18,437 bases of DNA from Promethearchaeota archaeon. GTDB lineage: Archaea; Asgardarchaeota; Lokiarchaeia; Sigyniarchaeales; SOKP01. Numbering within the stretch: the stretch's first letter is position 1; each line of letters starts with the position of its first letter. The position numbers were made by a program, and so were the translations under genes. The stretch is from contig JAHLWH010000080.1 in assembly GCA_019058015.1 (NCBI GenBank), positions 1 through 18,437 of the forward strand. The letters are read 5' to 3'. The notes under the pieces were generated by a model. It made no database searches. It had not been told where the DNA came from and saw only the letters and a list, made by a program, of their open reading frames with translations. This document shows positions 980 to 17,524 of this stretch, piece after piece.

Positions 980-1003
980 TTTTTAAAAATTACCTCTTAT
1001 TTT

Positions 1004-1702: not shown

Positions 1703-1720
1703 TTTTTACTTACCTCCTGT

Positions 1721-2350
1721 TTAAGTTAAAATTAAAATTGAATTTTTTTTCATAATTTTGTTTGTCTCAAGATTAATAACCTTGATATTTTGAGATTCAA
1801 ATAACTTTTTCAATTCAGAAAACAATTCTTTACGGGTAAAATGAATAATACTAATCTCATCGTCATTAATCATCTTAATTATATCTAATACCTTTTTTAT
1901 GATCCATAAAGGTGTTAGCTTTAAATCTAAATGATTTTCTTTGTCTTTTACTTCACTTTTTAAGAGATGAATCCATGAGTTCAGATTTTGAGTCTTTAAT
2001 GACTCTTTCTCGGCGGGATCTGAACAGAGTTTCTCATATTCTCCTTGTAATTCCTCAATTTGTTCTTTTTTTTCTGAGATTTCATTTAATAAATAAATTT
2101 TAGCGTAGTCAGGGATATTAACATAATAATATGGTATCCCAAAATTATCAAAAAATTGTGCTAAAGGAGTCAGGTAAATCTTTTTTAAATCATCATCACT
2201 TAAATCAATCGTAGCAAAATTGAATTTTTGTTTTCTTAAGAGAACCAATAAATTTTCATGTTCTGCGTCAGATAATTCTTTATTATCCTTTTCTATTAGA
2301 TATAAAGAAATTTTTTTATCTTTTATCGGTTTTAATTCCAATACTTCCAT
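1721..2350 (-). CDS. B-type hypothetical protein, copy 2 (divergent paralog of the A domain, with a coiled-coil insert)
   Basis: Start moved to ATG at 2350 (MEVLELKP) to match paralog 4360..5019 (MEVLEIEP); GGGTA lies just upstream. Shared motifs: FATIDL, IPDYAK, KESLKTQNLNSWI. Confidence 0.8.
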   Translation of the reverse strand: MEVLELKPIKDKKISLYLIEKDNKELSDAEHENLLVLLRKQKFNFATIDLSDDDLKKIYLTPLAQFFDNFGIPYYYVNIPDYAKIYLLNEISEKKEQIEELQGEYEKLCSDPAEKESLKTQNLNSWIHLLKSEVKDKENHLDLKLTPLWIIKKVLDIIKMINDDEISIIHFTRKELFSELKKLFESQNIKVINLETNKIMKKNSILILT

Positions 2351-2457
2351 TTTTTTTACCCATTCCAAATTTTTATATATTCTGAAATTTTTTTTTACTA
2401 TTTAATTGATTTAAATGCAATAATTTAATTTATTTGATAAGAGGAATTTTAGACAAC

Positions 2458-2604
2458 TTGACTAATTAATTTATCAACTTAACCATTTTTTTTATCAAAA
2501 ATTAAAAAATCTTCTTTTTAAAACTAATTATAAAATAAATATGACAAAAAAAGTTTGATAAAATTGACAATTTAAATAATCAAGCAAACAATTTTTTTTA
2601 TCAT
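2458..2604. promoter_or_regulatory. Four copies of a putative operator palindrome TTGAYAA-N6-TTRTCAA, arranged as two tandem pairs
   Basis: 2458-2477 TTGACTA-attaat-TTATCAA; 2479-2498 TTAACCA-tttttt-TTATCAA; 2564-2583 TTGACAA-tttaaa-TAATCAA; 2585-2604 CAAACAA-tttttt-TTATCAT (weak). Starts are 21 bp apart within each pair. Confidence 0.65.
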
Positions 2605-2630
2605 TAATTAAAATATGCTTTCTATTAATT

Positions 2631-2651
2631 AAAAATAAAATAAAAAAAAAA
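2631..2651 (-). terminator. Oligo-T archaeal-type terminator candidate downstream of mtd copy 1
   Basis: A-rich run on the plus strand (A10 at 2642-2651), i.e. a T-tract on the minus strand starting 12 nt after the stop at 2664. Confidence 0.5.
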
Positions 2652-2663
2652 GTGAGTTTGAAT

Positions 2664-4346
2664 TTAGTGAGATATTACAATTTTTTTGCCAAATAATATT
2701 TCTTTTGCAATTTCAAAAGCAATGTTATAATCGAATATTTTCTTTCCTTTGGTTTTAGTAGCTTCTCTAAGAATAGAACCTTCAGTTGTCGATTTTAAAT
2801 GGCCTATTCCTAATGCCCCAATTCCAAAAATTCCGGGGTAAATTTCTTCATTATCATGTTTTGGTTTTATACCTTCAATTCCGTACGGCGGAACTAAATT
2901 AATGTCTATTACGATTTTATTTTTTGGTAATTTGCTCATCAATTCTTCTGATAAGATTTGAACTCCTGCAGCTGCTAAAGACCAGATTATATCAGCATCT
3001 TTTACTATTTCAAATTTTTTCTCATCCGTTATTGCGAATTCTCCAATGATTTCAGAAGCGTTTTTTCCTGCCTCTTTAGTTAATTCTTTTGCAAGCTGCT
3101 TTACAGCTTTTTCACTTCCCTTATCCCATGTCTCAACTAAAACTGTTTCACAATTTTGTTTTGCCGCAATTATTGCTGCAATTCGCCCGACAGGGCCAGT
3201 TCCTAATACGACCGCTTTTTTTCCTGAGATATTACTTATCCCGCTTTTCATTGCCGCTTCCAGAGTTTTCGCGACTATTGCCGAAGCCGTAGTGTGAGAT
3301 CCTCGTGGATCTATGATCACAGGGACTTCGAAAGGTGGTACTAAGGAACCCACGACTTTTTTCGCAATTTTTTCACCTTCCGCTACATTCGCCCCACCAA
3401 TGAAAAAACTGGTCGGAGCTTTTGGCTTTCGCGAGAATATCGCATCTTGCACAAGTCTTGGCACTTGTTCAACCTTTACATTACTAACGGGAATAACTAC
3501 ATCAAACCCCGCATCGTATGCCATATTAATATCAAAGGGAGACGCATGCTCATCTGTATCTAAAAAATACACAATTTTTTCTAGACTATCTTTTTTCTTT
3601 ATTTTAACGGGAGCAACTTCCATAATTGATACCTTTACAAATTCTTTTATCGTATTTGGCTTCTCTAAATCTCCAATATTTAAAATATTTTTCTTAACTT
3701 CAAATTTTTGAATTTCTACTCCTAGGTCATCTGTAAGGGTTGTAATACCATCAAAATGCCTTTTATCACAAATAAATAGACATTTTAATTTTTTCTCTTT
3801 TTGTTCTTTTGCCATATCAAGAATCCCCATCATCATCCAAGCTTCACGGATCTTATATCTTATTTCTTCCTCTTGATTTTCGTATTCCACCTGTAAATAT
3901 TCTCTCCACGTTATTAATTGCTGAAAATAATAATCATTGGGATGAAACCCTCCCTTTTCTTTAATCTTTATAATTTCTGCTTTAATTCCCTTTAAAAGTT
4001 CCACGTTTTTGTCTATTGTCGAAGCAAGATATCCAAGTGCGTTCTCATTGATATCAACCATCTTATAAGGTATTTTAAAATCTCTAAATAAATCAACAAA
4101 AGCATCATCATAATGTAATTTATCACTAGAACGCAATCCTTGTTCTTCAACTACAAAATTTGGTTTATGTTTCCGTAATATATTTTCAATAAGTTTTAGA
4201 TAATCTTTTGACATAAAACTGAAATTTAAAGATTGTTCAAGCTGCTCTTTTGTTGGCTCCAACCACCAACCAATTGGAAACTCACTTTCTATTAATATTA
4301 TTTCTAATTTTTTATTTTTTAAAGGGTTTATTTCTAACACTTGCAA
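2664..4346 (-). CDS. mtdB: Fusion protein, copy 1: uncharacterised ~220-aa A domain plus MtdB-like NAD(P)-dependent methylene-tetrahydromethanopterin dehydrogenase
   Basis: The C-terminal ~300 aa carry Mtd motifs SPFDINMAYDAGF, QDAIFSR, FFIGG, LVPPF, DPRGSHTTASA, Rossmann GTGPVG, AAAGVQ and DINLVPPYGIEG. TTG start, with SD GGAGGT (4355-4360) overlapping the upstream TAG stop. Confidence 0.9.
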   Translation of the reverse strand: MQVLEINPLKNKKLEIILIESEFPIGWWLEPTKEQLEQSLNFSFMSKDYLKLIENILRKHKPNFVVEEQGLRSSDKLHYDDAFVDLFRDFKIPYKMVDINENALGYLASTIDKNVELLKGIKAEIIKIKEKGGFHPNDYYFQQLITWREYLQVEYENQEEEIRYKIREAWMMMGILDMAKEQKEKKLKCLFICDKRHFDGITTLTDDLGVEIQKFEVKKNILNIGDLEKPNTIKEFVKVSIMEVAPVKIKKKDSLEKIVYFLDTDEHASPFDINMAYDAGFDVVIPVSNVKVEQVPRLVQDAIFSRKPKAPTSFFIGGANVAEGEKIAKKVVGSLVPPFEVPVIIDPRGSHTTASAIVAKTLEAAMKSGISNISGKKAVVLGTGPVGRIAAIIAAKQNCETVLVETWDKGSEKAVKQLAKELTKEAGKNASEIIGEFAITDEKKFEIVKDADIIWSLAAAGVQILSEELMSKLPKNKIVIDINLVPPYGIEGIKPKHDNEEIYPGIFGIGALGIGHLKSTTEGSILREATKTKGKKIFDYNIAFEIAKEILFGKKIVISH

Positions 4347-4359
4347 TTTTTTTTACCTC

Positions 4360-5019
4360 CTATTTTATGATTTGATTTGAAATTATTACTTTATTCTTAG
4401 CATCAAAAGTTCGATCTGAAACTCCAGTGCTAAAATTATTTATAATAACATTTATTTTGAGTTCTTGAAACAATTTTTGTAATTCAGGAACTAATTCTTC
4501 TGGACTAAAATGTAAAATAATTAAGGAATTTTTCTTATAAGTTCTTGCCCTGTCCAATATTTTTTTAACGATCCATTGAGGCTTAACTTTTAATTTTATA
4601 TATTGTTCTTTATCATTAACTTCCTCTTTTAATAAATCAATCCAAGATTTTAAATTTTGCCCCTTAAATGATTCTTTTCCAGAGGGATCATTGGATAAAC
4701 TTTCATATTCTGATTCTAATTCCTTAATTTGTTCTTTTTTATCGGATATTTCTCCCAATAAATAACCTTTTGCGTATTCGGGAATGTCAATACCGATAAA
4801 TTCGATTGAAAAATCTTCTAAAAATTTCGCTATGGGTGAATTATTTAATTGTTTTAAATTTTTACCCAATAAGTCAATAGTAGCAAAATCAAATGTATAA
4901 TTTTTTAAAAAGTTCTCGAAAATTTTTGCTTTTACGTGCGATATTTTATAATCTTCTTTCTCTATTATATAAAGAAAAATTTTTTTATTTTTTACCGGCT
5001 CGATTTCTAAAACTTCCAT
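4360..5019 (-). CDS. B-type hypothetical protein, copy 1
   Basis: 219 aa, colinear paralog of 1721..2350. Its stop codon overlaps the SD of the downstream mtd fusion (TAGGAGGT), suggesting translational coupling. Confidence 0.82.
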   Translation of the reverse strand: MEVLEIEPVKNKKIFLYIIEKEDYKISHVKAKIFENFLKNYTFDFATIDLLGKNLKQLNNSPIAKFLEDFSIEFIGIDIPEYAKGYLLGEISDKKEQIKELESEYESLSNDPSGKESFKGQNLKSWIDLLKEEVNDKEQYIKLKVKPQWIVKKILDRARTYKKNSLIILHFSPEELVPELQKLFQELKINVIINNFSTGVSDRTFDAKNKVIISNQIIK

Positions 5020-5107
5020 TTAGTCAAGGACCGTTTGTTTAATTATTTAATTATTTTTTATTTTTTATTTTACCCAGTAATTCACCTTAATAATAAATAA
5101 AAATAAT

Positions 5108-5180
5108 TTGATAAAAAGAGTTATCTCTATTTTAACAACTAATATTGTCAAAATATAGAATTGACAATTTCCATTATCAT
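5108..5180. promoter_or_regulatory. Three copies of the putative operator palindrome TTGAYAA-N6-TTRTCAA
   Basis: 5108-5127 TTGATAA-aaagag-TTATCTC; 5132-5151 TTAACAA-ctaata-TTGTCAA; 5161-5180 TTGACAA-tttcca-TTATCAT. Confidence 0.65.
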
Positions 5181-5394
5181 AAGTGATTTATCAACTTATC
5201 TTTATTTTAGCAAGTTATATCTAAAAAGAATTGAAATACATCTTTTTTTCTTTCATTTTTATGTGGTTTTAAAGAAAAAAATTGTCTTTTTAATAACTTG
5301 AATTTTCTTTTTTTTTTTTTAACTAATTTTATTTTCAGTTTTAAAATGAGAATAATTACATTTTGAAGATTTTTGATCAGTAAGATTTTTATTT

Positions 5395-5414
5395 TTGATA
5401 ACTTTATTTGTCAT
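5395..5414. promoter_or_regulatory. Putative operator palindrome upstream of the wHTH-hdrA gene
   Basis: TTGATAA-ctttat-TTGTCAT, ending 110 bp before the ATG at 5525. Confidence 0.6.
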
Positions 5415-5524
5415 AGTGAAAATCATAATTATTTTTTTTAATAATATTTATTTTCGGTTTTCGACAAAGAATTATAATTTTCCAGATAATGATTTGTAAA
5501 AATAATTAAAGGGAGATTAGAAAT

Positions 5525-8056
5525 ATGGATATATATTCAATTTTATCTCATCCATTTAGGAGGAAGATTTTATTACTTCTTGATAAAGAAGGTTATATCT
5601 CTTACACAGAATTGATGGATAGGTTAGGTTTAGAGACTACTGGGCAATTAAATTTTCACCTTAAAAAACTTGGGACTTTAATAAATAAAGATAAAAAATC
5701 CTATTTTCTCACGGAGGACGGAAAACGAGTTATAAATTTAATGAATATTGATAAAAAAATTTTGGCAGGTGAGGATATTGAATATTTGGATAAGGTTGGT
5801 AGTGAGATTAATCGAGTGGGGGTTATTATTTGTAAATGCAATACTGAAATTTCTAATCTTATAAGTATTAATGCACTTGAAAATTATATTAAAAGAATTC
5901 CCAATGTAGTTGCTGTGAAGATTTTTGATAATCTTTGCCAAGAGAAAAATTTAGAAAAGATTACTAAATGGTCTAAAGATAATTATTTGAATAAGATTGT
6001 TATTGCTGCGTGTTCTCCAAAAACTCATTTGCATATATTTGAAAGAATTTTTGATGGAGTTATTGATAAAGTTAATATTGAAATTGCTAATATTAGGGAG
6101 CAATGTTGCTGGGTGCATCTAAAAGAACCTACTTTAGCGTTAAAAAAAGCGCAAATTTTGATTGAGGCAGCGGTTGAACGAGTTGCGCTTCAAAAAGATG
6201 TTCAAGTAAAAACTGTTAAAATTGAAAAAAGTTGTGCCATTTTAGGTGGTGGAATTGCTGGAATGACACTTGCATTGAATTTATCAAGAGCAGGAATTAA
6301 AGTCTATTTAATTGAAAAAACTCCAACATTAGGTGGTAAAATTGCCAGGTGGAGTAAAATTTATGGAATGGGTGATTGTTCAATTTGTCTTATGTCAGAA
6401 ATGATAGGTGAGGTTGTTAAAGAAAAAAATATCGAAATTTTAACTAATACTGAAATAGAAAAAGTATCAGGTGAAGTAGGAAATTTTTCAATTGATTTGG
6501 TTAAAAAACCCCGATATGTTGATGAAAAGAAATGTACTGGATGTAAAAGATGTATTGAAATTTGCAGTATAGAAAAAAGTAATCAATATGAATTTGGATT
6601 AACAGCAAGGAAGTTAATTTATATTCCTTATGTTCAATCTTATCCATATGCTCCAGTGATTGACCAAGAAGATATTGAAACTTGCCGACAATGTAGAATT
6701 TGCGAGCGAGCTTGCAATAATAATGCGATTGATTTGGATCAGAAATTTGAAAAAATAAGGATTAGAGTTGGAACAAAAGTAATTGCAATTGGTGCGGATT
6801 TTTATTCTGAATTAAAACCTTATAACCATAATCCACAAAATGACGTAATTATATCTCCGGAATTTGAACGTATCTTATCAGCGGATGGTCCAACGGAAGG
6901 TAAAATTTTGAAATTATCTGATGGAAAACCACCGAAATCAATCTCAATAATTCAAGGTTTAGGTCCATTTGATTATTTAGCGGAATATTGTGGTACTCTC
7001 GCCATAAAGTATTTAGAATCTATTTATTCACAACTTCCTGATTGTAAAATTAACATATTTTTTGATTTAAATAAAATTAAGAAATCTACTGGATTTATGT
7101 TAGATCCATCTGATGAAAGATTTCATTATTATGAAAATATTGAAATCATAGAGAAAGGAAATAAGAAAATAATAATTTCTGATTCAGAGCAGTATCCCTC
7201 CGATATGATCGTGTTAAATGTCAATTTTGTTCCAAATAAAGATTTAAAAGAACTTCGAAAGACTTTAGATTTTACATTAGACGATCATGGTTTTATGAGT
7301 GAGGAAACGCTGGCATCCGGTATTTTTGGTGTTGGTTCAATTAAAGGTCCATTAGATTATAATTCAGTGATCTCATCTTCCAATGATGTAGCTATTAAAA
7401 TTATTTCATTGTTATCAAATGATTATTTAATTACAGAATTTAGCGGTATCGAAATCAAAGAAGAGAATTGCGGATTGTGTGGTTTATGCATATTATCTTG
7501 TCCTTACAATGCAATCACAATTGAGGCAGATAAAATTGCGATTGATAAATTCAAATGTAAAGGATGCGGAACGTGTGTAAGTGTTTGTCCCACAAATGCA
7601 CTTGACTTAAACATTGATACTACTGAGAAGATACTAAAATCAATTGAGGTATTTTCTAAATTCAATTTACGACCAAAAATAATTGCATTCTGCTGTCGTT
7701 CTTGTGGATATGGTGCAGCCGATGAAGCTGGCTTAAAGAAACTTTCCTATAATCCCAACATCTTTATTATTAAAGTTCCATGCACAGGGCGGGTAGATAC
7801 GAGTTTAATTTTTAAATCTTTCGAATTAGGATTTGATGGAGTAATGATTATTGGTTGCAGAAAAGATTCCTGCCGATATATAAATAGTGTAGATCAAGTA
7901 AGACAAAAAGTTAAACTTTTAAAAGAAGTTTTAGGTCCTATTGCTGAAAATCGAATAATTCGTAAATCATTAAGCGCAGTTGAGGGCAATAAATTTGCAG
8001 AGATTGTAAATTCTTTTTATGAAAGATTATCAGAGGAGATTAAAAATGAAACCTAA
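5525..8056 (+). CDS. hdrA: Winged-HTH / HdrA / MvhD triple fusion protein
   Basis: aa 1-75 form an ArsR-like archaeal wHTH (LSHPFRRKILLLL...SYTELM...TGQLNFHLKKL...YFLTEDG). HdrA motifs: RVGVIICKC, AACSP, NIREQCCWVH, GGGIAG, EKTPTLGG, DCSIC, KKPRYVD, four ferredoxin-type CxxCxxCxxxC motifs, EFER. C-terminal MvhD motifs: FCCRSCGYGAAD, VPCTGRVD, GCRKDSCRY. SD GGGAG at 5511. Confidence 0.92.
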   Translation: MDIYSILSHPFRRKILLLLDKEGYISYTELMDRLGLETTGQLNFHLKKLGTLINKDKKSYFLTEDGKRVINLMNIDKKILAGEDIEYLDKVGSEINRVGVIICKCNTEISNLISINALENYIKRIPNVVAVKIFDNLCQEKNLEKITKWSKDNYLNKIVIAACSPKTHLHIFERIFDGVIDKVNIEIANIREQCCWVHLKEPTLALKKAQILIEAAVERVALQKDVQVKTVKIEKSCAILGGGIAGMTLALNLSRAGIKVYLIEKTPTLGGKIARWSKIYGMGDCSICLMSEMIGEVVKEKNIEILTNTEIEKVSGEVGNFSIDLVKKPRYVDEKKCTGCKRCIEICSIEKSNQYEFGLTARKLIYIPYVQSYPYAPVIDQEDIETCRQCRICERACNNNAIDLDQKFEKIRIRVGTKVIAIGADFYSELKPYNHNPQNDVIISPEFERILSADGPTEGKILKLSDGKPPKSISIIQGLGPFDYLAEYCGTLAIKYLESIYSQLPDCKINIFFDLNKIKKSTGFMLDPSDERFHYYENIEIIEKGNKKIIISDSEQYPSDMIVLNVNFVPNKDLKELRKTLDFTLDDHGFMSEETLASGIFGVGSIKGPLDYNSVISSSNDVAIKIISLLSNDYLITEFSGIEIKEENCGLCGLCILSCPYNAITIEADKIAIDKFKCKGCGTCVSVCPTNALDLNIDTTEKILKSIEVFSKFNLRPKIIAFCCRSCGYGAADEAGLKKLSYNPNIFIIKVPCTGRVDTSLIFKSFELGFDGVMIIGCRKDSCRYINSVDQVRQKVKLLKEVLGPIAENRIIRKSLSAVEGNKFAEIVNSFYERLSEEIKNET

Positions 8057-8807
8057 TTTCTTAATCGAATCATTGACTTCTTGTAGTGGTTGTATCTCAA
8101 CAATGATTTCATTAGATATTTTTCCTCAATTTCTTGATAAGGTAAATCTCGTTCGTTGTTCATTTATGAGAGATGAAAATAATATCTCTGAAAATGATAT
8201 CGCTTTAATTGAGGGATGTGTTTCAGAGGAAAAACAAATCGATATTCTTAAAAATATTCGGAGTAAATCCAAGAGAGTAATTGCTTTAGGAACTTGTGCT
8301 GCTTTTGGTGGAATGCTTGCACTTTCCACTGTAAAAGAAGCAGAACCCATATCCAATTATATAGAAGTAGATGGAATAATTCCTGGATGTCCACCACCTT
8401 CTAAATTATTAGGCAATTGTATTATTAGACTGCTAGAAAATAAAGAGATTATTTTGCCTGAAAAAAATGTTTGTGCAGATTGCGAATTTAGAACTGATAA
8501 TATTGAAAGCAAATTTATGAAACGAATTAATAAACTAATGCCTAGAGAGTATAACTTAGATATCGAAAATAAAGATAAACGTTGCTTTTTAGAAAGAGGA
8601 ATTTTATGTTTGGGACCAATAACTAGAGATGGTTGTGAATCTAAGTGCATTAAATTGAACCTTCCTTGTGATGGGTGCATGGGACCAATTAAAAACGATT
8701 TTACCTCTAATGCCATTAATTTTTTGAGCACTGTAAATCTTGCCAAAGGTCTAAGGAAATATAAAGGAATTTTCTATCGTTATTCAAAACCAAAAACCAA
8801 GAGGTAA
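8046..8807 (+). CDS. mvhG: Group 3 [NiFe]-hydrogenase small subunit (MvhG-like)
   Basis: Motifs SCSGC, IEGCV, ALGTCAAFGG, IPGCPP, VCADC, CFL..GILCLGPITRDGC..KC....PCDGCMGP. Start moved to ATG 8046 (SD GAGGAG at 8033-8038), overlapping the hdrA stop. Confidence 0.9.
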   Translation: MKPNFLIESLTSCSGCISTMISLDIFPQFLDKVNLVRCSFMRDENNISENDIALIEGCVSEEKQIDILKNIRSKSKRVIALGTCAAFGGMLALSTVKEAEPISNYIEVDGIIPGCPPPSKLLGNCIIRLLENKEIILPEKNVCADCEFRTDNIESKFMKRINKLMPREYNLDIENKDKRCFLERGILCLGPITRDGCESKCIKLNLPCDGCMGPIKNDFTSNAINFLSTVNLAKGLRKYKGIFYRYSKPKTKR

Positions 8808-8813
8808 AAAATT

Positions 8814-10118
8814 ATGAAGAAAGTAGTTGATGTATGCACCCGGGTTGAAGGACATGGAAATATAAAAATTTTACTTCAGAAAGATGAAATTACAAGTGTG
8901 AATTTTGATCTTGAGATATTTCGAGCGTTTGAAAATTTATTACTTGATAAGAGGTTGATTGATGTTCCTAGAATTGCATCAAGAATATGTGGATTGTGTC
9001 ACGCATCACAGACAATAACTAGTTGTAAAGCAATAGAGAGTATGTATGAAGTCGAACCCTCCAATCAATCAGTTCTTTTGAGACGACTATTAATGATTGG
9101 TGAGTTGATAAAATCTCATTCTATGCATTTCTTTTTTCAAGCATTTCCCGACCTTTTTGTAATTTTGGATAAACAACCAAAACCACTCTCACTGAATGAA
9201 TTAATCCATTTTGATCCTAAATTAACTTCAAATATGTATGAATTAATAAAAATCGGCAATGAAATTGTGAATTTATTTGGTGGAAGATCTGTTCATTTAA
9301 TAACACCCATTATCGGTGGTGTTTTTTTTTCTCTATCCAAAAAAGAAATAAATATTGCACGGAAATATCTGCAAAATTCTATAAATAATTTAAAATGGAT
9401 TATTGAGCGATTCCAAGAGATATTTTCTCAATTTGATCCTCCTGATGTTTATTCCTTACCAAATCCTGCTTATATGGGAATGCATAATGATGAGAAATAT
9501 GACCGGTATAATGGACTCTTACGATTAGCACAAAATAATAAAATTATCGCAGATTTTCCCGTATATAAACATTCGCAATATTTTGATAAGCAGGAGGATA
9601 TACGTGGAATTGATTTCTATTTAAAAAACGACCAAAACATTCTTGTTGGCCCACTCGCACGATATAAAATAATTAATGATTATGGAATAGATGAACTGCA
9701 ATCCTATATTGGACTTTTTAATAAAGAATGGCAAAATAGTATTTTATTCTCAAACGTTATCAGGCTAATAGAAATGATGTTTGTTTCTTACGAAGGGTTA
9801 TCAATTCTAGACGATACTGAATTGACACAAAAAAATGAAATTAATCCTATTAATTTTTTAAGAAATAATGAAGGACTCGGCATGGTTGAAGCACCTCGAG
9901 GAACTCTCATACACTATTATCATGTAAATAAAAAGAGATTAATTGATAAAGTGAAGCTTTTTATTGCAACTGAAATTAATTTGCCAATTATTGATGAAAT
10001 CCTAACAACACAAAGCCAAAAATTGTATGAAAGAACTGGTGATTTTAATCAGATAAAAAAACAAGCGCAAATGATTATAAGATCGTTTGACCCCTGTATC
10101 TCTTGCGCAACTCATTAA
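8814..10118 (+). CDS. mvhA: Group 3 [NiFe]-hydrogenase large subunit (MvhA-like) with sensory-type features
   Basis: Motifs TRVEGHG, L1 RICGLCHASQ, SHSMHFFF, GGRSVH, VGPLAR, EAPRGTLIH, and L2 RSFDPCISCATH followed directly by the stop. SD GAGGT overlaps the mvhG stop. Confidence 0.92.
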   Translation: MKKVVDVCTRVEGHGNIKILLQKDEITSVNFDLEIFRAFENLLLDKRLIDVPRIASRICGLCHASQTITSCKAIESMYEVEPSNQSVLLRRLLMIGELIKSHSMHFFFQAFPDLFVILDKQPKPLSLNELIHFDPKLTSNMYELIKIGNEIVNLFGGRSVHLITPIIGGVFFSLSKKEINIARKYLQNSINNLKWIIERFQEIFSQFDPPDVYSLPNPAYMGMHNDEKYDRYNGLLRLAQNNKIIADFPVYKHSQYFDKQEDIRGIDFYLKNDQNILVGPLARYKIINDYGIDELQSYIGLFNKEWQNSILFSNVIRLIEMMFVSYEGLSILDDTELTQKNEINPINFLRNNEGLGMVEAPRGTLIHYYHVNKKRLIDKVKLFIATEINLPIIDEILTTQSQKLYERTGDFNQIKKQAQMIIRSFDPCISCATH

Positions 10119-10289
10119 ATTTATTTTTAAGTATAGAATATACTATTCTCTTATAATTAAGAAATGACAAATTATTTTTTGTTTATTTTTAAGCAATTTG
10201 GAAAAGAAGAATATCGTGCTAAAAAGCATATTAAATCAATTAGGATTAGAGAATTTTATCATAGGAATTATGCTGATTGAGGTAAGCTT

Positions 10290-10997
10290 ATGGTTGGATT
10301 AAAAACTAAAATTTCTAAAGAAAAATTAAGACTTCTTATCATATTTATTCTGTTATCTGCTTCACTTTTTTTACAATATTATTTTCAATTTATTCTAAAA
10401 ATAAGCATTATTTTTTCCCATTTCTTTTATATCCCTATTATTTTTGCATGTCTTTGGTGGAAAAACAAAGGCTTGGTTGTACCAATCTTTCTCTCTGGAT
10501 TACTCATTTTCTTTCCCATTTTAAGTGGATTGGATATGTTTTTTAATAATCTTATTGAAAATATTTTTCGAGCTGTCTTAATTTTATTTATTGGTATTGT
10601 AGTTGTCATTTTAAGCAAGCAAATCTTAAAGGCAGAAAATAAATTAAAAGAACGAGTTAAGGAACTTAATTGTTTATATAATATTATTGAATTGATTAAA
10701 AATCCAAACATATCAATTGAAGAAATTCTATTAGAAACTCAAAAGCAAATTCAAAATGCCTGGAAATTTCCGGATATGATATGTTCAAAAATAGTTTTTG
10801 ATAAAAAAGAATATTTAACAGACAACTATAAAAAAACCCCTTGGAAATTAACAGTTAAAAATTTAATAAAGGATAAGGAATTAAGTATTTCTGTACATTA
10901 TCTCAAGGAAAAACCCTTCCTTGAAGAAGAAAAGAATTTATTAGAGAAAATTGCTGAACAGTTAAAAGCTATTTTTGAATTTAAGTTATTAATGTAA
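10290..10997 (+). CDS. Membrane sensor-like protein: ~4 TM helices, a coiled coil and a GAF-like domain, with no output domain
   Basis: Hydrophobic N-terminal half with SHFFYIPII..C.WW. KERVKELNCLY...AWKFPDMICSKI...PFLEEEKNLL resembles a module recalled from PAS/histidine-kinase proteins. SD GAGGT at 10279-10283. Confidence 0.65.
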   Translation: MVGLKTKISKEKLRLLIIFILLSASLFLQYYFQFILKISIIFSHFFYIPIIFACLWWKNKGLVVPIFLSGLLIFFPILSGLDMFFNNLIENIFRAVLILFIGIVVVILSKQILKAENKLKERVKELNCLYNIIELIKNPNISIEEILLETQKQIQNAWKFPDMICSKIVFDKKEYLTDNYKKTPWKLTVKNLIKDKELSISVHYLKEKPFLEEEKNLLEKIAEQLKAIFEFKLLM

Positions 10998-11069
10998 TTT
11001 TCTTTGAGATTAAATTTATTAATCTTTAAAATAAAACCAAAAAAAATAGCTAATAATAAAGTTTGGTAA

Positions 11070-13319
11070 TTATTCCTCCTCTTCCTTAAATATTTCCTCT
11101 ACTTTATCGTTAGAATCTCTGAAAGGATGTAGAGCTCCTGACCAATCTAAAAGATGAGGTCTATGCTTTTCCTCAAACCATTCAACAAATTCTTTTAAAA
11201 GACTACGGTCTTCTAATGATTGTTTTCCTTTTACAAATAATGCTGAGAAAATATACTGCCCATATTCAATCAAAATTTTAATATCTCCATGGTCAATCGT
11301 CTTAAGCAATTCTGAACTCTTTGTTGTCTCTTTAATAAAAGCGGTAATGGCCGTAAACATTCCAGCAATTAAACCAGAATCCGCATAATCTACACCTTTG
11401 AAGTTGTAACTGAATATATCGCGTCCATCAGAGTAAATTACATATAATCCTTGCAGCTCGACTTTTTCATATTCATATGTGAATTCTGGAATCCAAAAAG
11501 AGATTTTTCCATTATAAAATAGATATTTTAAAGTAAAATAAAATCTCCGCATTTCTTCCTTCTCTATTGGTCTAATTTCTTTCAAAAATTTATTGTTCTT
11601 GATCTTTTCTAACAATTCTTTAACTTCTTCTCTTTCTTCAATTTTTTCTTCCTTAACTTCTGATTCAGGAGTTTTAACCACTAAATATCGATAGAGATCC
11701 GTGCGGTATGCCTCATATTTTGGAAATTCGGAAGTTCTTGAAAAAGATATCTTTTCAACTATTTTTTCTCCCTTAAGAACATTTTTAACAATAAAGATTT
11801 TATTTAAATAATATAAAATTAATCCCCAGATTAAGAGATTAAAAACATAGCGTGTATAAGTGAATGGAATCGCTATAATTTCTAATAATGGAAATTCACC
11901 TAGGTTGACTTTAAACAATACAGTCCTTATTGTGTAAATATCTTTATCAAATAATGAAAAATAAGCTGATGCACCAGTAATCCAATAATCTTCCGGAGCA
12001 AAATTGATTGGGGGGTAAAAACCTACAAACCTAATTAATATTGAGATTAAAATGACAATCCCTAGAAAGATAAAAGATGTTATGGCTATCTTTTTTATAA
12101 ATTGCATACTTCTCGCGAAAAGATATGCAAAAAGGATAACAGAAAAAATTAAAATAAATGTATTTATGATATTAAATAGATCCAATCTTAACGCATCTTC
12201 TAAAAATATAATATTTCCATAAGTAATATCAGCTTTTAATAGTAGTTCGTCAAAATATTCTTGACTTATAATTATTCCTATCTGTATTGGATTAATTAAA
12301 AATTGGTAAATAATAAGAAAAATAAGACAGCCTCCTACTCCAATAACTAAAGGAATATACCAATTTGTCCAATCTATCTTTCTTTTCTTTGTTTTTGCTT
12401 TTTTCCATAAATCAACTAACTTTATAAAAATTAAAATAGCAATAGGTTGAAAAATTTTATGGAATAAAATAAATATTCCAGCACCCATCATAAAATATGC
12501 GAAGAAATAAAGTATGAAAACGTAATTTGTAGTAGGATCCGCTAAAAATAATAAAATACTTAAAAGGGATATTGGAGTTCCTACTTGAAACAAACTTCTA
12601 AATGTATCTTCTCTCAATTTTTCTCCAATATATGCTCCTTTAAAGGAAATTTTACTACTATACACCAAGTGAATCCCAACTAATAGTGTAGCAATATATA
12701 CAAATAAAATTTCCACAAACCATCCCATAGTTGTTTCCCCAGTGGTTAAATCAATACTCTCTAAACCTAAAAGTTCGATTATGACGGATAATAAGTATAG
12801 AGATATTGGCAAAAGAACAATTAATAATTTTAAGAGTTGTTTTTCTTCCGACCAATCACCTTTTATTAGTCCCTCTTTTATCATATCAGAAGGACTTTTT
12901 TTAAATTCAAAAGTTAGATCGGCAAGTTTATCCCTCATAGCTCCCGGTTCTTTTCGTAATTTTCTCCATAATATAAGAAACGATAAAAATGGTCCCACCA
13001 GAAAGATAAATGTCAAAGTTGCAAAAGGATATTGCAAAAAATAACCAATTAGAGATATCATGTGAGAAAATATAAAAAAAAACGCTAAAAATATATTTCC
13101 TTGCTCTTCAGGATGTAATTGAAGCTCCTTAGGATCAATGTCTGTTTGAAACATAATTGGTAAAATCCAATATACTAGAAAGAAGATAACAATTCCTAAG
13201 AAGACTCTTAAATATAATTTTCCAATTAATCTTTTATAAATAAAAGGAATTGGAATTGCCAAAAAAATGATTGGTAGCCCATTTAATAACAATAAATAAA
13301 ATATTTCTATCGTTTCCAT
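11070..13319 (-). CDS. Polytopic membrane protein with a C-terminal Asgard longin-like domain
   Basis: More than 10 hydrophobic segments in the first ~510 aa. The C-terminal ~130 aa (GLYVIYSDGRDIF...DSGLIAGMFTAITAFIKE...IDHGDIKILIEYG...FVEWFEEKH...WSG) match the longin/profilin-like fold pattern common in Asgard proteins. Confidence 0.75.
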   Translation of the reverse strand: METIEIFYLLLLNGLPIIFLAIPIPFIYKRLIGKLYLRVFLGIVIFFLVYWILPIMFQTDIDPKELQLHPEEQGNIFLAFFFIFSHMISLIGYFLQYPFATLTFIFLVGPFLSFLILWRKLRKEPGAMRDKLADLTFEFKKSPSDMIKEGLIKGDWSEEKQLLKLLIVLLPISLYLLSVIIELLGLESIDLTTGETTMGWFVEILFVYIATLLVGIHLVYSSKISFKGAYIGEKLREDTFRSLFQVGTPISLLSILLFLADPTTNYVFILYFFAYFMMGAGIFILFHKIFQPIAILIFIKLVDLWKKAKTKKRKIDWTNWYIPLVIGVGGCLIFLIIYQFLINPIQIGIIISQEYFDELLLKADITYGNIIFLEDALRLDLFNIINTFILIFSVILFAYLFARSMQFIKKIAITSFIFLGIVILISILIRFVGFYPPINFAPEDYWITGASAYFSLFDKDIYTIRTVLFKVNLGEFPLLEIIAIPFTYTRYVFNLLIWGLILYYLNKIFIVKNVLKGEKIVEKISFSRTSEFPKYEAYRTDLYRYLVVKTPESEVKEEKIEEREEVKELLEKIKNNKFLKEIRPIEKEEMRRFYFTLKYLFYNGKISFWIPEFTYEYEKVELQGLYVIYSDGRDIFSYNFKGVDYADSGLIAGMFTAITAFIKETTKSSELLKTIDHGDIKILIEYGQYIFSALFVKGKQSLEDRSLLKEFVEWFEEKHRPHLLDWSGALHPFRDSNDKVEEIFKEEEE

Positions 13320-13378
13320 TTATAATACCTTATTTTTTATATTAAATTAATTATAATATACGTTAATTATTTACGTGA

Positions 13379-13389
13379 TTATATAAATA
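13379..13389 (+). promoter_or_regulatory. TATA-box candidate in the 85-bp divergent intergenic region
   Basis: TTATATAAATA about 20-25 nt upstream of ATG 13405, with no SD motif; compatible with a leaderless transcript. The AT-rich background weakens this call. Confidence 0.35.
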
Positions 13390-13404
13390 TTTGCTGATAA
13401 TTGG

Positions 13405-14502
13405 ATGAATAACATAGGAATAATCTCAGATAAAGACTTTGAAATGTTAAATGAACCACCTTTTCCCCGACCTTATTTTGAAGCTTTTGAAACACCTTTA
13501 AGAATTAAATGCATTAAGGATTACTTTGAAAAAGAGAAATTATTTGAAGATAATAGGATAAAAAAGATTCCAATAAGAAATCTCGAAAAGATTGAGACAA
13601 TTCTTGAATTAGTTCATACTAAATACCATGTTGATTCAATAAAATATTTTTCAAATTTAGCTTCTGGAAGTGTTGGTGAAACTGTATTCATTACTGAAGA
13701 GACATTTAAATTAGCAAAAAAGGCAATTGAAGGAACAATTACTGCTTTTAATTCCGTCATATCTGGAGAAGTTAATCAATCATTTGCTTTCATAAGACCC
13801 CCGGGTCATCATGCACTAAGAGATGTAGCTTCAGGTCTGTGTATTTTTAATAATATCGCAGTAGGTATTCAATATTTAAGAAAAATAAAAAAAAATGCGA
13901 AAAAATTCGCCATTATTGATATAGATAATCATTATGGAGATGGAATCGCCAAATTTTTTTATGAAGACCCAGAGGTCCTTTATTTTTCAATTCATGAGTA
14001 TGATTTTGATCAAGGGGAACTGGGTTTTATTCATGAGCTTGGAAATAATGAAGGTTTAGGCTATAACATTAATTTTCCAATACCTCCCAAAACTACTGAT
14101 AAGTATTATTTAGAGTTTTTTGATATTTTAGAGGCAGTGTTTTCAGAATTTAAACCTGAAATAATAATTGTTGCCTGCGGATTTGATTGTCACTACACCG
14201 ATCCCATCGGAAATTGTTTGCTTACAGCGAATTCCTACATCAAATTTACTCAAAAATTATTAATACTCGCAAATAATGTATGTAATGGGAAGATCTCATT
14301 TATCCTCGAAGGAGGATATAGCTTAAGTGCATTACCAATATGTTCTTACTCTATAGTTAAAACACTACTAGGTGATATGGTTAATCTACCTTCTCAAGAA
14401 AAAATAGAATTTCCCGAGGATTTAGATATCTCAAAAGTAATTGCTAAAGTAAAAGGGGAATTAAATAATCTATTAAGAGATTATTGGTCAAATATTTCCT
14501 AG
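13405..14502 (+). CDS. Zn-dependent histone deacetylase family protein (HDAC/AcuC/AphA)
   Basis: Motifs RPPGHHA, GLCIFNN, IIDIDNHYGDG, SIH, GFDCHYTDP and LEGGY. The catalytic His pair, Zn ligands and Tyr are all present. Confidence 0.93.
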   Translation: MNNIGIISDKDFEMLNEPPFPRPYFEAFETPLRIKCIKDYFEKEKLFEDNRIKKIPIRNLEKIETILELVHTKYHVDSIKYFSNLASGSVGETVFITEETFKLAKKAIEGTITAFNSVISGEVNQSFAFIRPPGHHALRDVASGLCIFNNIAVGIQYLRKIKKNAKKFAIIDIDNHYGDGIAKFFYEDPEVLYFSIHEYDFDQGELGFIHELGNNEGLGYNINFPIPPKTTDKYYLEFFDILEAVFSEFKPEIIIVACGFDCHYTDPIGNCLLTANSYIKFTQKLLILANNVCNGKISFILEGGYSLSALPICSYSIVKTLLGDMVNLPSQEKIEFPEDLDISKVIAKVKGELNNLLRDYWSNIS

Positions 14503-14584
14503 CACCTATTGATAAAAATAAGAAATTGTAATGCATTGCATCAACTTAATAAAATGAAAAAAATAAAAATAAAATTTTTATTCT

Positions 14585-14971
14585 TTACAATTTCCTTTTT
14601 AATTTTTTTGTATATTCTTGCACGTTAAATAACGCATCACGAGGACCGGCTTGAGGACTAATATAACACATTAATGCAGCGTTGTTATCACCTGTTGGGC
14701 AAATTATAATATGCCCCTTTCCTTTAATATTAGTTGCGATTTTTCGTTCAGGAGTATTCTCAACAACCATAAAATTAATCCCCTGTAATGAAATTCTTCC
14801 AACTCCACTTGTGGCTTGAATTAAGTTCAATATACCCGATAAATCTTGTGATAAATCCCAGTTCTCCGTTTGAAAACTTATTTGATTATTACTACCAATT
14901 AAAGCTACCCCTATTACATTTGGTTCTTCATTTAATAAGTCACTTATAATAGTACTAATCTCACTAGGCAA
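14585..14971 (-). CDS. Asgard (Loki-type) profilin
   Basis: 128 aa with QTENWD, ISLQGINFMVVENTPERKIATNIKGKGH and P.AGPRDALFNVQEY, closely matching Lokiarchaeota profilins as recalled. TTG start. Confidence 0.85.
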   Translation of the reverse strand: MPSEISTIISDLLNEEPNVIGVALIGSNNQISFQTENWDLSQDLSGILNLIQATSGVGRISLQGINFMVVENTPERKIATNIKGKGHIIICPTGDNNAALMCYISPQAGPRDALFNVQEYTKKLKRKL

Positions 14972-15154
14972 TACATCTCAACCCTTTTGAATTTTTCTAT
15001 TAATGAATATTGATAACTAAAAATTATTTTAAAACTCTTTTATTACCTATTGCTTAAATATATAAAATACATCATTCTTTAATTTAATATATTCAAAAAT
15101 ATATAGGAACCAACACTAAAGAAAAATAATTCATAAAATTTTTAAGTGACTATT

Positions 15155-15700
15155 ATGGCTTTACGATTGTGGAAAAAGGCAGTTGTCCTTACTCTTCGAA
15201 GTAAAAGAAGGTTTACTGTCTTTACGTTAATGTATACGGGACTAATTATTTGGTCTTCATTTTCATTAGATTTAACTCCGTCCTTGGGAGACATTGGACT
15301 TACCTCATTTTTTATTGCAATGGGCATCTCAATATTCCTATCGCTTTTATATGCCTGGATAATTACGAATTATAGAAGACGTGAAATAGCTACACTCAAA
15401 TGCATTGGTTGGACCAATAAAAATTGTCAAGCGATCATTATAGGCGAAATTCTATTTACTACATTAAGTGGATTTATTATCGTGATTGAAATTTTATTTC
15501 ACATAGTAGCATTTTTAGGATATTTCCATTCTGCATATAATCCCACTTTTGCTGCATCAGGATTACCTTTAATCTCTCTCAGTTCTGTGTTTGTTACATT
15601 TATCTTATTCATTTTAGTTCAATTAATTGGTATCTTTTTAGGCACAAGGAGAGTTTTAAAGGTCAGACCTATAATAGCTTTAAGGAAGGTAGGAACTTAA
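15155..15700 (+). CDS. Small FtsX/MacB-family ABC permease
   Basis: RRREIATLKCIGW...IIIGE motif, C-terminal P(I)IALR and about four TM helices. ATG 15155 is preferred over GTG 15146. Confidence 0.8.
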   Translation: MALRLWKKAVVLTLRSKRRFTVFTLMYTGLIIWSSFSLDLTPSLGDIGLTSFFIAMGISIFLSLLYAWIITNYRRREIATLKCIGWTNKNCQAIIIGEILFTTLSGFIIVIEILFHIVAFLGYFHSAYNPTFAASGLPLISLSSVFVTFILFILVQLIGIFLGTRRVLKVRPIIALRKVGT

Positions 15701-15710
15701 AGAGGTGAAT

Positions 15711-16400
15711 ATGATGGTAGATATGGATGTTATGATTAAGACTGAAGAAGTAAATAAAGAATATAGAAGAGAAGGTGCAATTATTAGAGCACTTATCGAT
15801 ATCAATTTGGAAATTAAAGAAGGAAAATTCGTAATCATACAAGGACCCACTGCTTGCGGAAAAAGCACACTTTTAAACGTATTATCAGGTCTAGATTTAC
15901 CCGATAGTGGGAAGGTTGTATTAGATGGTGAAAATATTTCCCGCTCAACAGAAGATCGTCTTTCCCGAATTCGTAGAAGAAAAATTGGCTTTGTCTTTCA
16001 AGATTTTAATTTAATCAATAATTTAACCGCTATTGAAAATGTAGAATCCACTTTATGGCCAACAGTATTACGCAATAAAGAAATTGAAAATAGAGCTATT
16101 TCTGCTTTACGTGATGTAGATCTATTGGAGAGAAAAGACCACTTTCCTGTCCAAATGTCTGGTGGTGAGAAACAAAGAGCTGCAATCGCCCGAGCAATAG
16201 TACATCGGCCTCGAGTGATTCTAGCTGATGAACCGACCGGGAATTTAGATCCAGATTCTGAAACAATGATAATGAATCTTCTCAAAAAAATAAATAAAGA
16301 CTATGATACTACGATGATTATTGTAAGCCACCGAGACCTATCTAAATATTGTGACATATTGATCAAAATGGATAAAGGAAGAATCGTTTCCGTAAAATAA
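15711..16400 (+). CDS. ABC ATP-binding protein, LolD/MacB/FtsE type
   Basis: Walker A GPTACGKS, IGFVFQ, signature MSGGEKQR, Walker B ILADEPTGNLD and H-loop VSH. SD GAGGTG at 15702-15707 favours ATG 15711 or 15714. Confidence 0.92.
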   Translation: MMVDMDVMIKTEEVNKEYRREGAIIRALIDINLEIKEGKFVIIQGPTACGKSTLLNVLSGLDLPDSGKVVLDGENISRSTEDRLSRIRRRKIGFVFQDFNLINNLTAIENVESTLWPTVLRNKEIENRAISALRDVDLLERKDHFPVQMSGGEKQRAAIARAIVHRPRVILADEPTGNLDPDSETMIMNLLKKINKDYDTTMIIVSHRDLSKYCDILIKMDKGRIVSVK

Positions 16401-16497
16401 AATCTATTTTCCTTATTTTTTCATTGATATATAAAAGATAAGTGAAATTAAATACTATGATTTTTTTAATATAGATAATAAAAAGAACTAATTTTTG

Positions 16498-17316
16498 ATG
16501 GGAGAAAAAATGGGATTAAAAAGAGTAATCTGTTCGGGCTGTTTGGGGATGTTATGCCTCATCCCGATGGCTTTTATTAGTTTTATATTTTTAGACCTTG
16601 GATCGGCTATTACCGGCGGAGTACTTACGAATATGGGTGATGCATTAGTGTCTCTTGGTTCTCTTCCTCTGTTAGGTCCTATAGGGCCCTTAATACCAAT
16701 ATTAGGGGGTGCTGCTTTTGGAATCATTTTGCTAATGCTCTTTCCGCTAGATTGGGTTCTTATTTATAGACCTGACGAACCTATGATGATGCTGGCAATA
16801 ATTCTACCTTGGATATTATGCTGCACACTCACAGCAGCTATTTTCGCACATAGCCCAAAAGGAGGTCTTACAACCTCTGTAGCTATAGGTTTGGGCTATA
16901 TGATACCAACTGTAGTAATTTATCTTTTAATACCTGTAATTGTTAATATGCTCATCAGTGGAATGCTTGGTGGAGCACTGCCCATTGATTTAAGTTTTAT
17001 AACTGAATTAATTGATTCTGTATTTGTAGGTCTTACTGACCGACCGTTTGTATTAGCCGTTATAACAGCAATTTTAGAAGGATGTTTAATAGGAGGAGTT
17101 TTCGGAGCGTTCATTGGAAGTCTTAAATATAAACCAGAGGGTGCGGAAGGAAAAGTTAAGAGTTATGCAGAACCGGAATTTGGCACTGCTGAAAAAGGTG
17201 AAGTGAAGAAGAAAGTAGCAATCGAATCCACTGAAGCCACAAACTTTTGTATGCAATGTGGAGCTAAACTGGAACCAGGAGATACATTTTGCACTAATTG
17301 TGGGGCTAAAGTTTAA
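16498..17316 (+). CDS. Membrane protein with a C-terminal zinc ribbon
   Basis: Several Gly-rich hydrophobic segments, a charged linker, then FCMQCG...FCTNCG at the C-terminus. Confidence 0.8.
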   Translation: MGEKMGLKRVICSGCLGMLCLIPMAFISFIFLDLGSAITGGVLTNMGDALVSLGSLPLLGPIGPLIPILGGAAFGIILLMLFPLDWVLIYRPDEPMMMLAIILPWILCCTLTAAIFAHSPKGGLTTSVAIGLGYMIPTVVIYLLIPVIVNMLISGMLGGALPIDLSFITELIDSVFVGLTDRPFVLAVITAILEGCLIGGVFGAFIGSLKYKPEGAEGKVKSYAEPEFGTAEKGEVKKKVAIESTEATNFCMQCGAKLEPGDTFCTNCGAKV

Positions 17317-17524
17317 AGAATAAGTCAATAAACCAATAATTATTTATAAAAATATTAAGATTCAATATTTTTTCTTTCTTTTTTATTTTTTCAAACAAAA
17401 ATTTCCTTTAATTAATCGAGTTCGAATGTTAAAATATCTTTTTAATTTTTAAATTTATATAGAATTAAATAATATCTATTCATAAAATAAATCAAGTAGA
17501 TAATATATTTAATGTGATGATTAA

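Follow-up and report, generated by a model that had tools for sequence, protein, structure and literature searches.

A glutamine at the L1 histidine position marks an Asgard lineage of MvhA-like [NiFe]-hydrogenase large subunits encoded with a winged-helix-HdrA-MvhD fusion protein

RESULTS

The L1 motif of the large subunit

The window analyzed in this report is a stretch of 18,437 nucleotides from a Promethearchaeota archaeon of the class Lokiarchaeia (assembly GCA_019058015.1, contig JAHLWH010000080.1, positions 1 to 18,437). Our subject is a [NiFe]-hydrogenase large subunit encoded by the last gene of a tight three-gene operon in this window, behind the genes for a winged-helix-HdrA-MvhD fusion protein and an MvhG/VhuG-like small subunit (Table 1). 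A first-pass annotation had pointed out that the L1 motif of the large subunit carries Gln in place of the usual His, as do H2-sensing hydrogenases, and had suggested convergence on a sensory active site.

The bases at 8982-9011, AGA ATA TGT GGA TTG TGT CAC GCA TCA CAG, are in frame with the open reading frame (ORF) at 8814-10118 and encode residues 57 to 66 of the protein, R57-I-C59-G-L61-C62-H63-A-S-Q66; this direct reading confirms the motif and its Gln66 codon, CAG at 9009-9011. At the other end of the protein, the L2 motif DPCISCATH forms the last nine residues (10089-10115) and is followed immediately by the stop codon. Among solved relatives, MvhA ranks first (5odc_F; E value of 5.4e-50, spanning residues 4-434). 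Against the NCBIfam VhuA model the protein scores 174 bits, under the cut-off of 800.

Gln is the rule among close relatives. It occupies the L1 column in 119 of the best 120 of 6,175 significant matches (51 to 97% identity), the lone His by column count being that of P0010, and 119 of these 120 proteins likewise end at the L2 His. The identical ten-residue motif is found on three further contigs of metagenome-assembled genomes (MAGs) at 92 to 97% identity (L001-L003). Counting His against Gln among orthologs had been proposed as a check: in 46 orthologous loci of different genomes, all from a sample of related MAGs that are not mutually independent, codon 66 is CAA in 36, CAG in 5 and a His codon in 5, which makes 41 Gln to 5 His. 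Because both CAA and CAG are used, the third base of this codon has turned over without loss of Gln, even though His is one third-base step away. The concern that CAG might be a sequencing or assembly error is ruled out by the three additional contigs and by the Gln counts in relatives and loci alike.

The first-pass annotation had also remarked that a His three residues earlier might compensate for the substitution. His63 is indeed present in the window protein, but position 63 holds Tyr in 72 of 121 sequences (window protein included), with His in 46, Phe in 2 and Cys in 1. Since most relatives carry Tyr there, compensation by His63 cannot be general and is ruled out as a general solution.

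Among the more distant sequences sampled, Gln is absent. The L1 column of 121 more distant full-length group-3 representatives holds His in 113, Tyr in 8 and Gln in none, so that Gln is not the common residue in ordinary group-3 enzymes that the annotation had considered it might be. In a search of about 15 billion proteins clustered at 50% identity, with one representative for each cluster, Gln among the best 150 of 2,431 matches is confined to the nearest ones (P0127, P0130, P0131, P0135, P0136, P0137, P0152, P0175, P0188 and P0128, the last with the variant KICGLCHASQ). Printed alignments give His in three solved relatives, namely 5odc_F (RICGICQVAH), the NiFe-HydABCSL subunit 7t2r_D (RICGICPVSH) and 9sfi_g (RICGICQTPH).

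The eight Tyr representatives (P0180, P0183, P0192, P0208, P0238, P0252, P0266 and P0272), with RICGICPVAY and similar motifs, form together with one His sequence a second non-His clade of group-3 large subunits (support 100). Outside the sensors, this clade is thus a second departure from a universal L1 His.

Phylogeny and order of events

We calculated two trees, both unrooted and from fast searches, with no named group 2b or 3a-3d reference among their rows. In the FastTree phylogeny of 157 rows, every Gln sequence falls in a single clade of 28 rows with a support of 99; the His sequences P0010 and P0125 form a sister pair inside this clade, nested beside a Gln sequence. The IQ-TREE phylogeny of 54 rows (LG+C20+F+G4, short search) has a clade of 18 Gln and 2 His sequences with a Shimodaira-Hasegawa-like approximate likelihood ratio (SH-aLRT) support of 100. 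Its successive sisters are all of the His type: L054, L055 and P0129 (support 88), then L056-L058 and P0132. At the fewest changes parsimony would have two, one gain of Gln and one reversal to His.

The His-type sisters belong to two other families of the phylum (f21 and f18) and have C-terminal tails of 7 to 10 residues. Tails of 5 to 11 residues are also present, together with Gln, on the deepest Gln branches (P0127/L051, P0131, P0135 and P0136), and the crown of the clade is tail-less (27 of 32 sampled clade members). Because the deepest Gln branches keep their tails, Gln was gained first and the tail was lost later.

The operon is the same in all five basal His-type loci (L054-L058), whose fusion proteins align from residue 1, and Gln therefore did not create the operon context. 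By the evidence of the two trees and these loci, His was replaced by Gln once, inside an Asgard-specific lineage, after the operon and the DNA-binding fusion existed. Taken with the Gln counts and the use of both codons, this makes Gln66 a residue under selection that defines a paralogous, Asgard-specific branch of MvhA-like proteins. A phylogeny, also proposed in the first-pass annotation, thus gives Gln an independent origin on a group-3c-like scaffold. The substitution is real but is no peculiarity of this gene; it is inherited throughout the clade.

Residues that change with Gln66 and the invariant core

A column was scored as clade specific when its residue was present in at least 90% of 32 clade rows, in at most 10% of 121 others, and different in the basal His-type orthologs. 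Gln66 itself is among these columns, as are Cys8 (8835-8837; Ile, Val or Leu in other sequences) and Gln419 (10068-10070; Glu in 86 others, Lys in the basal orthologs). Leu61 is fixed in 32 of 32 clade members, where the others have mostly Ile or Val, and Gln109 (9138-9140) is found in 30 of 32, compared with Leu in 91 others and Phe, Met or Leu in the basal orthologs. Position 63 is His or Tyr in the clade and Pro or Ser elsewhere. In a gap-free alignment to MvhA, positions 61 and 109 lie 48 residues apart, a spacing that we take to be that of the gas-channel gate pair, Val74/Leu122 in Desulfovibrio fructosovorans and Ile62/Phe110 in the Cupriavidus sensor.

The core of the protein shows no such changes. 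Cys59, Cys62, Cys428, Cys431, Arg10, Glu12, Arg37, Glu40, His102, Asp113, Glu359, Arg362, Asp426 and His434 are invariant in 32 of 32 clade members, a set that takes in the four Cys, the Glu of RVEGH, the Arg of EAPRG, the Asp of DPC and the terminal His. With these residues invariant, the metal-site binding and the proton-transfer machinery look intact.

The basal His-type orthologs of family f18 (L056-L058) and the sequence P0132 depart at the L2 motif, which closes with Val in the former (DPCISCSSV...) and with Leu in the latter. The usual residue is a terminal His, presumably a ligand of the nearby Mg site.

Table 1. Features of the window, with positions on the forward strand
Feature	Position	Strand	Remarks
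Operon B, paralog of operon A	2-2368	-	215-amino-acid protein (1721-2368), 232-amino-acid protein (1004-1702), Mpt_N protein (2-979, cut by the window end)
Candidate site 3, TTGACTAATTAATTTATCAA	2458-2477		Begins 90 nt upstream of operon B (start 2368, minus strand)
Operon A, divergent	2664-5019	-	219-amino-acid protein of no assigned family (4360-5019), 560-amino-acid Mpt_N/Rossmann protein (2664-4346)
Candidate site 2, TTAACAACTAATATTGTCAA	5132-5151		Begins 113 nt upstream of operon A (start 5019, minus strand)
Candidate site 1, 20 bp, TTGATAACTTTATTTGTCAT	5395-5414		Matches TTGACAA-N6-TTGTCAA; ends 111 nt upstream of the fusion-gene start
Winged-helix-HdrA-MvhD fusion, 843 amino acids	5525-8056	+	DUF7347 45.2 bits, HTH_24, FlpD 120.4 bits
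MvhG/VhuG-like small subunit	8019-8807	+	PF01058 74.2 bits; VhuG 131.9 bits, under the cut-off of 450
MvhA-like [NiFe]-hydrogenase large subunit, 434 amino acids, without C-terminal extension	8814-10118	+	PF00374 92 bits (cut-off 25.8)
L1 motif RICGLCHASQ	8982-9011	+	Cys59 and Cys62 are metal ligands; Gln66 in place of the usual His
Membrane protein, 235 amino acids, downstream of the large subunit	10290-10997	+	N-terminal membrane part like that of DUF4118-type histidine kinases

The operon and its fusion protein

The fusion protein is built of a winged helix (residues 1-75), an HdrA-like flavoprotein (residues 97-716) and an MvhD part (residues 717-843). Residues 97-837 correspond to positions 1-770 of the 777 in the HdrA2 model (NF040770), with 591 bits against a cut-off of 1,100, and the FlpD match covers residues 719-836. 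A GGGIAG motif for flavin adenine dinucleotide (FAD) and all Fe-S cysteine motifs are readable in the HdrA part. The true start of the small subunit is probably the ATG at 8046, since the orthologs align from residue 10.

The triad of fusion, MvhG-like and MvhA-like genes is present in all 20 loci that were fetched with long flanks, five of them of the His type. Its parts are not equally conserved. The winged helix is the best-kept segment of the fusion protein, with a mean identity to the window of 74% versus 64% for the HdrA and MvhD parts, and its stretch TTGQLNFHLKK is near-invariant across 17 orthologs. Within the operon the large subunit is lowest, at 45 to 60%, followed by MvhG at 53 to 62% and the fusion protein at 65 to 70%. 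Neither HdrB nor HdrC was found in the operon when the window's proteins were scanned and the other loci were compared with the window's proteins.

The canonical Vhu paralog, Hyp genes and genome distribution

The same genome encodes a second, canonical set of these subunits on contig C28 (L005/L009, G000:C28:1039-5353, minus strand), in the order VhuG-like, VhuA-like, VhuU-like peptide, HdrC-like ORF and HdrB-like ORF; the last two were identified from their translations. The VhuG-like protein has 435 residues and scores 254 bits. The VhuA-like protein has RICGICPIPH as its L1 motif, has no L2 motif, and matches the VhuA model with 439 bits over the full profile length. The frame of the separate VhuU-like peptide (C28:2514-2663) contains a TGA (2598-2600) where the first L2 Cys would stand, probably read as selenocysteine, and the peptide has a tail of 21 residues. 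In both trees the C28 VhuA groups with the canonical clade and the Gln lineage branches apart. A group-4-type subunit is encoded on contig C74 of the same genome.

The two paralogs evolve at different rates. Among 56 genomes outside the window's genus that have both genes (paired by hand), identity to the window genome's copies is 76 to 88% for the VhuA type and 43 to 58% for the Gln type. In a sample of 121 family genomes, VhuA-type genes turned up in 97, HypD in 103 and the Gln type in about 81, by a hand count that takes in a fragment and a copy broken by four TAA stops. A 301-genome sample of the phylum yielded orthologs in 61 genomes at an E value of ≤1e-90, 53 of them in the window's class and four each in f21 and f18. 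The Gln-type open frames are intact in nearly all genomes. The copy with the four TAA stops, at G303:C51:14844-16037, is a probable pseudogene.

The genes hypF, hypE and hypD are clustered (for example, at G000:C129:40531-47049, G324:C1:1801197-1808225 and G276:C16:87760-94037), and in many genomes the vhu genes lie a few kilobases from hypD on the same contig. This locus often coincides with contig breaks. A HypF fragment occupies the last 820 bases of a contig in G049, HypE fragments lie at contig ends in G077, and PF00374 fragments lie at contig ends in G270; in G302 and G305 a VhuG-like gene sits at the very start of the hyp contig, which places vhuA off the contig. Searches of 11 selected genomes gave no other PF00374, PF00346 or PF02906 match in nine (G049, G077, G231, G125, G302, G305, G316, G346 and G337); G270 yielded additional PF00374 fragments, and the scan of G246 was limited to Hyp families.

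Two conclusions that these absences might have invited were rejected on account of the contig breaks: that the Gln type is the sole hydrogenase in some genomes and hence metabolic, and that it persists without Hyp genes, HypD being missing in five of seven apparently Gln-only genomes. The apparent absences of hydrogenase and Hyp genes are best explained as assembly breaks, and because the locus so often falls at them, MAGs of this family cannot be relied on to show that hydrogenase or Hyp genes are missing. Apart from these cases stands G325, whose single 2.27-Mb contig (C1; L064 is its stretch 1500000-1518000), estimated to be 81% complete, carries an intact operon of the Gln type; searches of this genome gave no HypD or VhuA-type match, a weak HypE-like match below the cut-off and weak partial HypF matches.

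Divergent operons and candidate operators

Two operons on the minus strand, A and B, precede the fusion gene and are linked to each other by the direct repeats D1-D6. The 560-amino-acid protein of operon A matches Mpt_N with 90.8 bits and resembles methylene-tetrahydromethanopterin (methylene-H4MPT) dehydrogenase; the Mpt_N protein of operon B scores 68.3 bits. The partner proteins of both operons (215 to 232 amino acids) have no Pfam or NCBIfam match, and in the 560-amino-acid copy a partner-like N-terminal part is fused onto the dehydrogenase. Homologs of the Mpt_N operons are divergent from the fusion gene in L052-L055, L059-L061, L066 and L068.

The window's two intergenic regions contain three palindrome-like sites, one ahead of each of the three start codons at a distance of about 90 to 130 nt (Table 1). 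They were found by scanning for TTGACAA-N6-TTGTCAA with one mismatch allowed per half, and they are among 19 such sites in the 3.84-Mb genome. Similarity between promoter regions (I1, I2 and I8) supports the candidate site in front of operon B. Dinucleotide shuffles of the two intergenic regions produced one site in 65 of 5,000 trials and at least two sites in none of 5,000. Perfect copies of the palindrome stand upstream of the fusion gene in the distant loci L054 and L055, and sites within about 280 nt upstream of this gene occur in L046, L050, L051, L052, L054, L055 and L059 and in the close relative L061.

Comparison with known systems

The complex is most like the MvhAGD-HdrABC/VhuAGDU-HdrABC enzymes of methanogens (group 3c; PDB ID 5ODC), which include the best solved relative of the large subunit. 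The large and small hydrogenase subunits, MvhD and HdrA are all present in the window operon, and its best NCBIfam models are VhuA, VhuG, VhuD and HdrA2, although all scores are far under the equivalog cut-offs. Unlike MvhA of 5ODC, which has the His and 25 further residues, the window protein has Gln66 and no tail, and its gate residues would be Leu/Gln rather than Ile/Leu, if our mapping of the gate is correct. Furthermore, HdrA and MvhD are fused in the window and have gained an N-terminal winged helix, and HdrB and HdrC lie outside the operon, their ORFs following the Vhu paralog on C28.

Passages of PMC5665086 treat the L1 His as conserved throughout the [NiFe] hydrogenases, the bacterial H2 sensors being the exception, and Gln in its place as characteristic of sensor hydrogenases. 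The sensors in question, HoxBC and HupUV of Cupriavidus necator and Rhodobacter (group 2b), share the L1 Gln with the window protein according to the same passages. They also share the lack of a C-terminal extension on the large subunit, a trait that is not specific to them; excerpts from PMC10073562 and PMC8229454 describe HoxC as having no such extension and yet using Hyp proteins. In both systems the two gate positions deviate from those of the standard enzymes, the hydrogenase co-exists with energy-converting hydrogenases, and there is a link to gene control, which in the window is provided by a fused DNA-binding domain.

Several features separate the window complex from group 2b. The gas-channel gate of group 2b sensors is a bulky Ile/Phe pair, whereas the window protein has Leu61/Gln109 at the same 48-residue spacing. 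Its scaffold is that of group 3: full-length matches are to MvhA, NiFe-HydABCSL, Frh, SHI, VhuA, ShyA and FrhA, and group-1/2-type models match only the first ~110 to 180 residues. The window contains no kinase and regulator of the HoxJ/HoxA or HupT/HupR type, and in their place a winged helix carried by an HdrA flavoprotein would serve as a one-component output. Finally, His-type orthologs of the window lineage exist in the same context. Group 2b sensors are also characterized by a very low turnover of H2, a restricted set of redox states and sensing that is insensitive to O2.

Two other systems are informative. HdrA2 of Methanosarcina acetivorans is likewise an HdrA-MvhD fusion; the window protein differs from it in its score below the cut-off, in the extra winged helix, and in being encoded with a hydrogenase, while HdrA2 is encoded with HdrB2C2. 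PutA is a trigger enzyme, a flavoenzyme with its own DNA-binding domain. By functional analogy, the window fusion also combines a redox flavoprotein with a DNA-binding domain and has candidate operators in its own promoter, but it has no homology to PutA, and its DNA binding and redox switching are a proposal. In the main text of open-access papers and preprints, we found none describing the Gln substitution or the winged-helix-HdrA fusion in Asgard archaea.

DISCUSSION

Judged from the sequences alone, the convergence on the group 2b sensor residue is real, and a sensor role for the window lineage is plausible. The earlier suggestion of convergence on a sensory active site holds for the residue, which is the same and arose independently, but not for the role, since Gln marks no role switch: His orthologs occupy the same operon. 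Gln itself is weak evidence for sensing. What supports the regulatory case instead is the winged helix, together with the candidate operators and the difference in evolutionary rate from the paralog. On these grounds we infer, with about even confidence, that this is a regulatory hydrogenase, which would work as a trigger enzyme or as a sensor alongside a conserved Vhu-Hdr enzyme.

The mechanism that we propose starts from a protein that would keep its NiFe(CN)2CO site and turn over H2. In standard enzymes the imidazole of the L1 His hydrogen-bonds the bridging Cys. The Gln amide would replace this imidazole N-H...S bond and would remove a titratable group, as in the bacterial sensor hydrogenases. 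Electrons would then enter the MvhD domain from MvhG and go on to the HdrA FAD, the tail-less, Gln-retuned hydrogenase reducing the fused FAD, upon which the winged helix would bind or release its operators. The redox state of the flavoprotein would in this way control binding to the TTGACAA-N6-TTGTCAA sites upstream of its own operon and of the two methylene-H4MPT-dehydrogenase-like operons. The bulk flux of H2 would be carried by the conserved VhuAGU-HdrCB paralog, and Gln would be a later refinement of the module and not the source of its regulatory role. We suggest, tentatively, that Lokiarchaeia-type Asgard archaea may possess a hydrogenase-based one-component transcription factor through which H2 sets the expression of its own genes and of H4MPT-linked C1 dehydrogenase genes.

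A number of observations weigh against this proposal. The basal His orthologs share the winged helix and the operon, and Gln is therefore not required for the function of the complex; moreover, the Gln of the bacterial sensor itself "seems not to be involved in H2 sensing", in the words of a passage of PMC5665086. Ending at the L2 His is found in 21 of 117 other group-3 representatives that have an L2 motif. The fast evolution of the large subunit may have other causes, and an HdrA with every cluster motif of a bifurcating enzyme looks more like a metabolic than a signaling component. As for the operators, the palindrome pattern was picked after related promoters had been viewed; genome-wide it is no commoner than control half-site arrangements (19 versus 18 to 25); the candidate sites sit in DNA of 14 to 18% G+C; two of the three window sites belong to duplicated promoters; and of the 19 other loci whose upstream sequence was scanned, only 8 have a site within about 280 nt at this stringency.

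The strongest alternative, which we regard as rather unlikely, is a purely metabolic second bifurcating or confurcating hydrogenase, composed of MvhAG and HdrA-MvhD, that supplies electrons to, or draws them from, ferredoxin and a second carrier and is perhaps linked to the neighboring H4MPT C1 dehydrogenases. Gln and the gate changes would then tune the bias of the enzyme or its affinity for H2, and the winged helix would merely autoregulate the operon or be structural. The invariant catalytic core fits such an enzyme, as do a full HdrA with its FAD and Fe-S motifs, the MvhD domain, and the Mpt_N dehydrogenase genes that adjoin the operon in about half of the loci. Cultured Asgard archaea are also reported to have a highly abundant [NiFe] hydrogenase (PMC11216029), which may be either paralog. 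However, neither HdrB nor HdrC was found in the operon in the loci compared with the window's proteins, and both accompany the Vhu paralog; the catalytic subunit is the least conserved in the operon, far below VhuA; and the best-conserved part of the fusion is the winged helix. In addition, the lineage was not found in about 40 of the 121 family genomes (hand count), which makes it dispensable.

Relaxed selection, with the paralog drifting to loss and Gln a neutral hitchhiker, is highly improbable: the fast-evolving large subunit, the interrupted G303 ortholog and the one subclade that went back to His (P0010 and P0125), by which His and Gln may be interchangeable, would suit it, but Gln is kept by all but one of the 120 relatives with both codons in use, the metal ligands and catalytic residues are invariant throughout the sampled clade, the open frames are nearly all intact, and several other columns adjacent to the active site were fixed along with Gln.

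The regulatory hydrogenase proposed here would, if it exists, be an archaeal H2 sensor that evolved independently of bacterial group 2b and came to use the same active-site residue, and a hydrogenase talking directly to DNA would be a new way to sense a partner's consumption of H2. The handling of H2 by Asgard archaea is central to syntrophy models of the origin of eukaryotes. Apart from any such role, an archaeal lineage that has fixed the same Gln on another scaffold is a natural replicate for the role of this residue, and since nature provides orthologs of both the His and the Gln type within one operon context, ready swap partners are at hand.

Neighboring genes

The 235-amino-acid membrane protein encoded downstream of the large subunit resembles DUF4118-type histidine kinases in its N-terminal membrane part only; it has no kinase domain, and throughout the window's genus the gene at this place encodes a C-terminal part different from that of the kinases. 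No kinase or receiver domain was found in the window proteins scanned. In G276 and G204 (L047:6837-7898 and L049:9385-10440), the gene that immediately follows that of the Gln-type large subunit encodes a DUF4118-type histidine kinase, and homologs of these kinases, complete or cut by contig ends, are in the same place in G186 and G216.

The loci of genus g2 (L043-L050, L063 and L064) have a second HdrA-like gene, divergent from the operon and composed of two ORFs of about 130 and 472 amino acids. The split between them falls at the position of selenocysteine in HdrA selenoproteins, and small MvhD-like and ferredoxin-like genes adjoin it.

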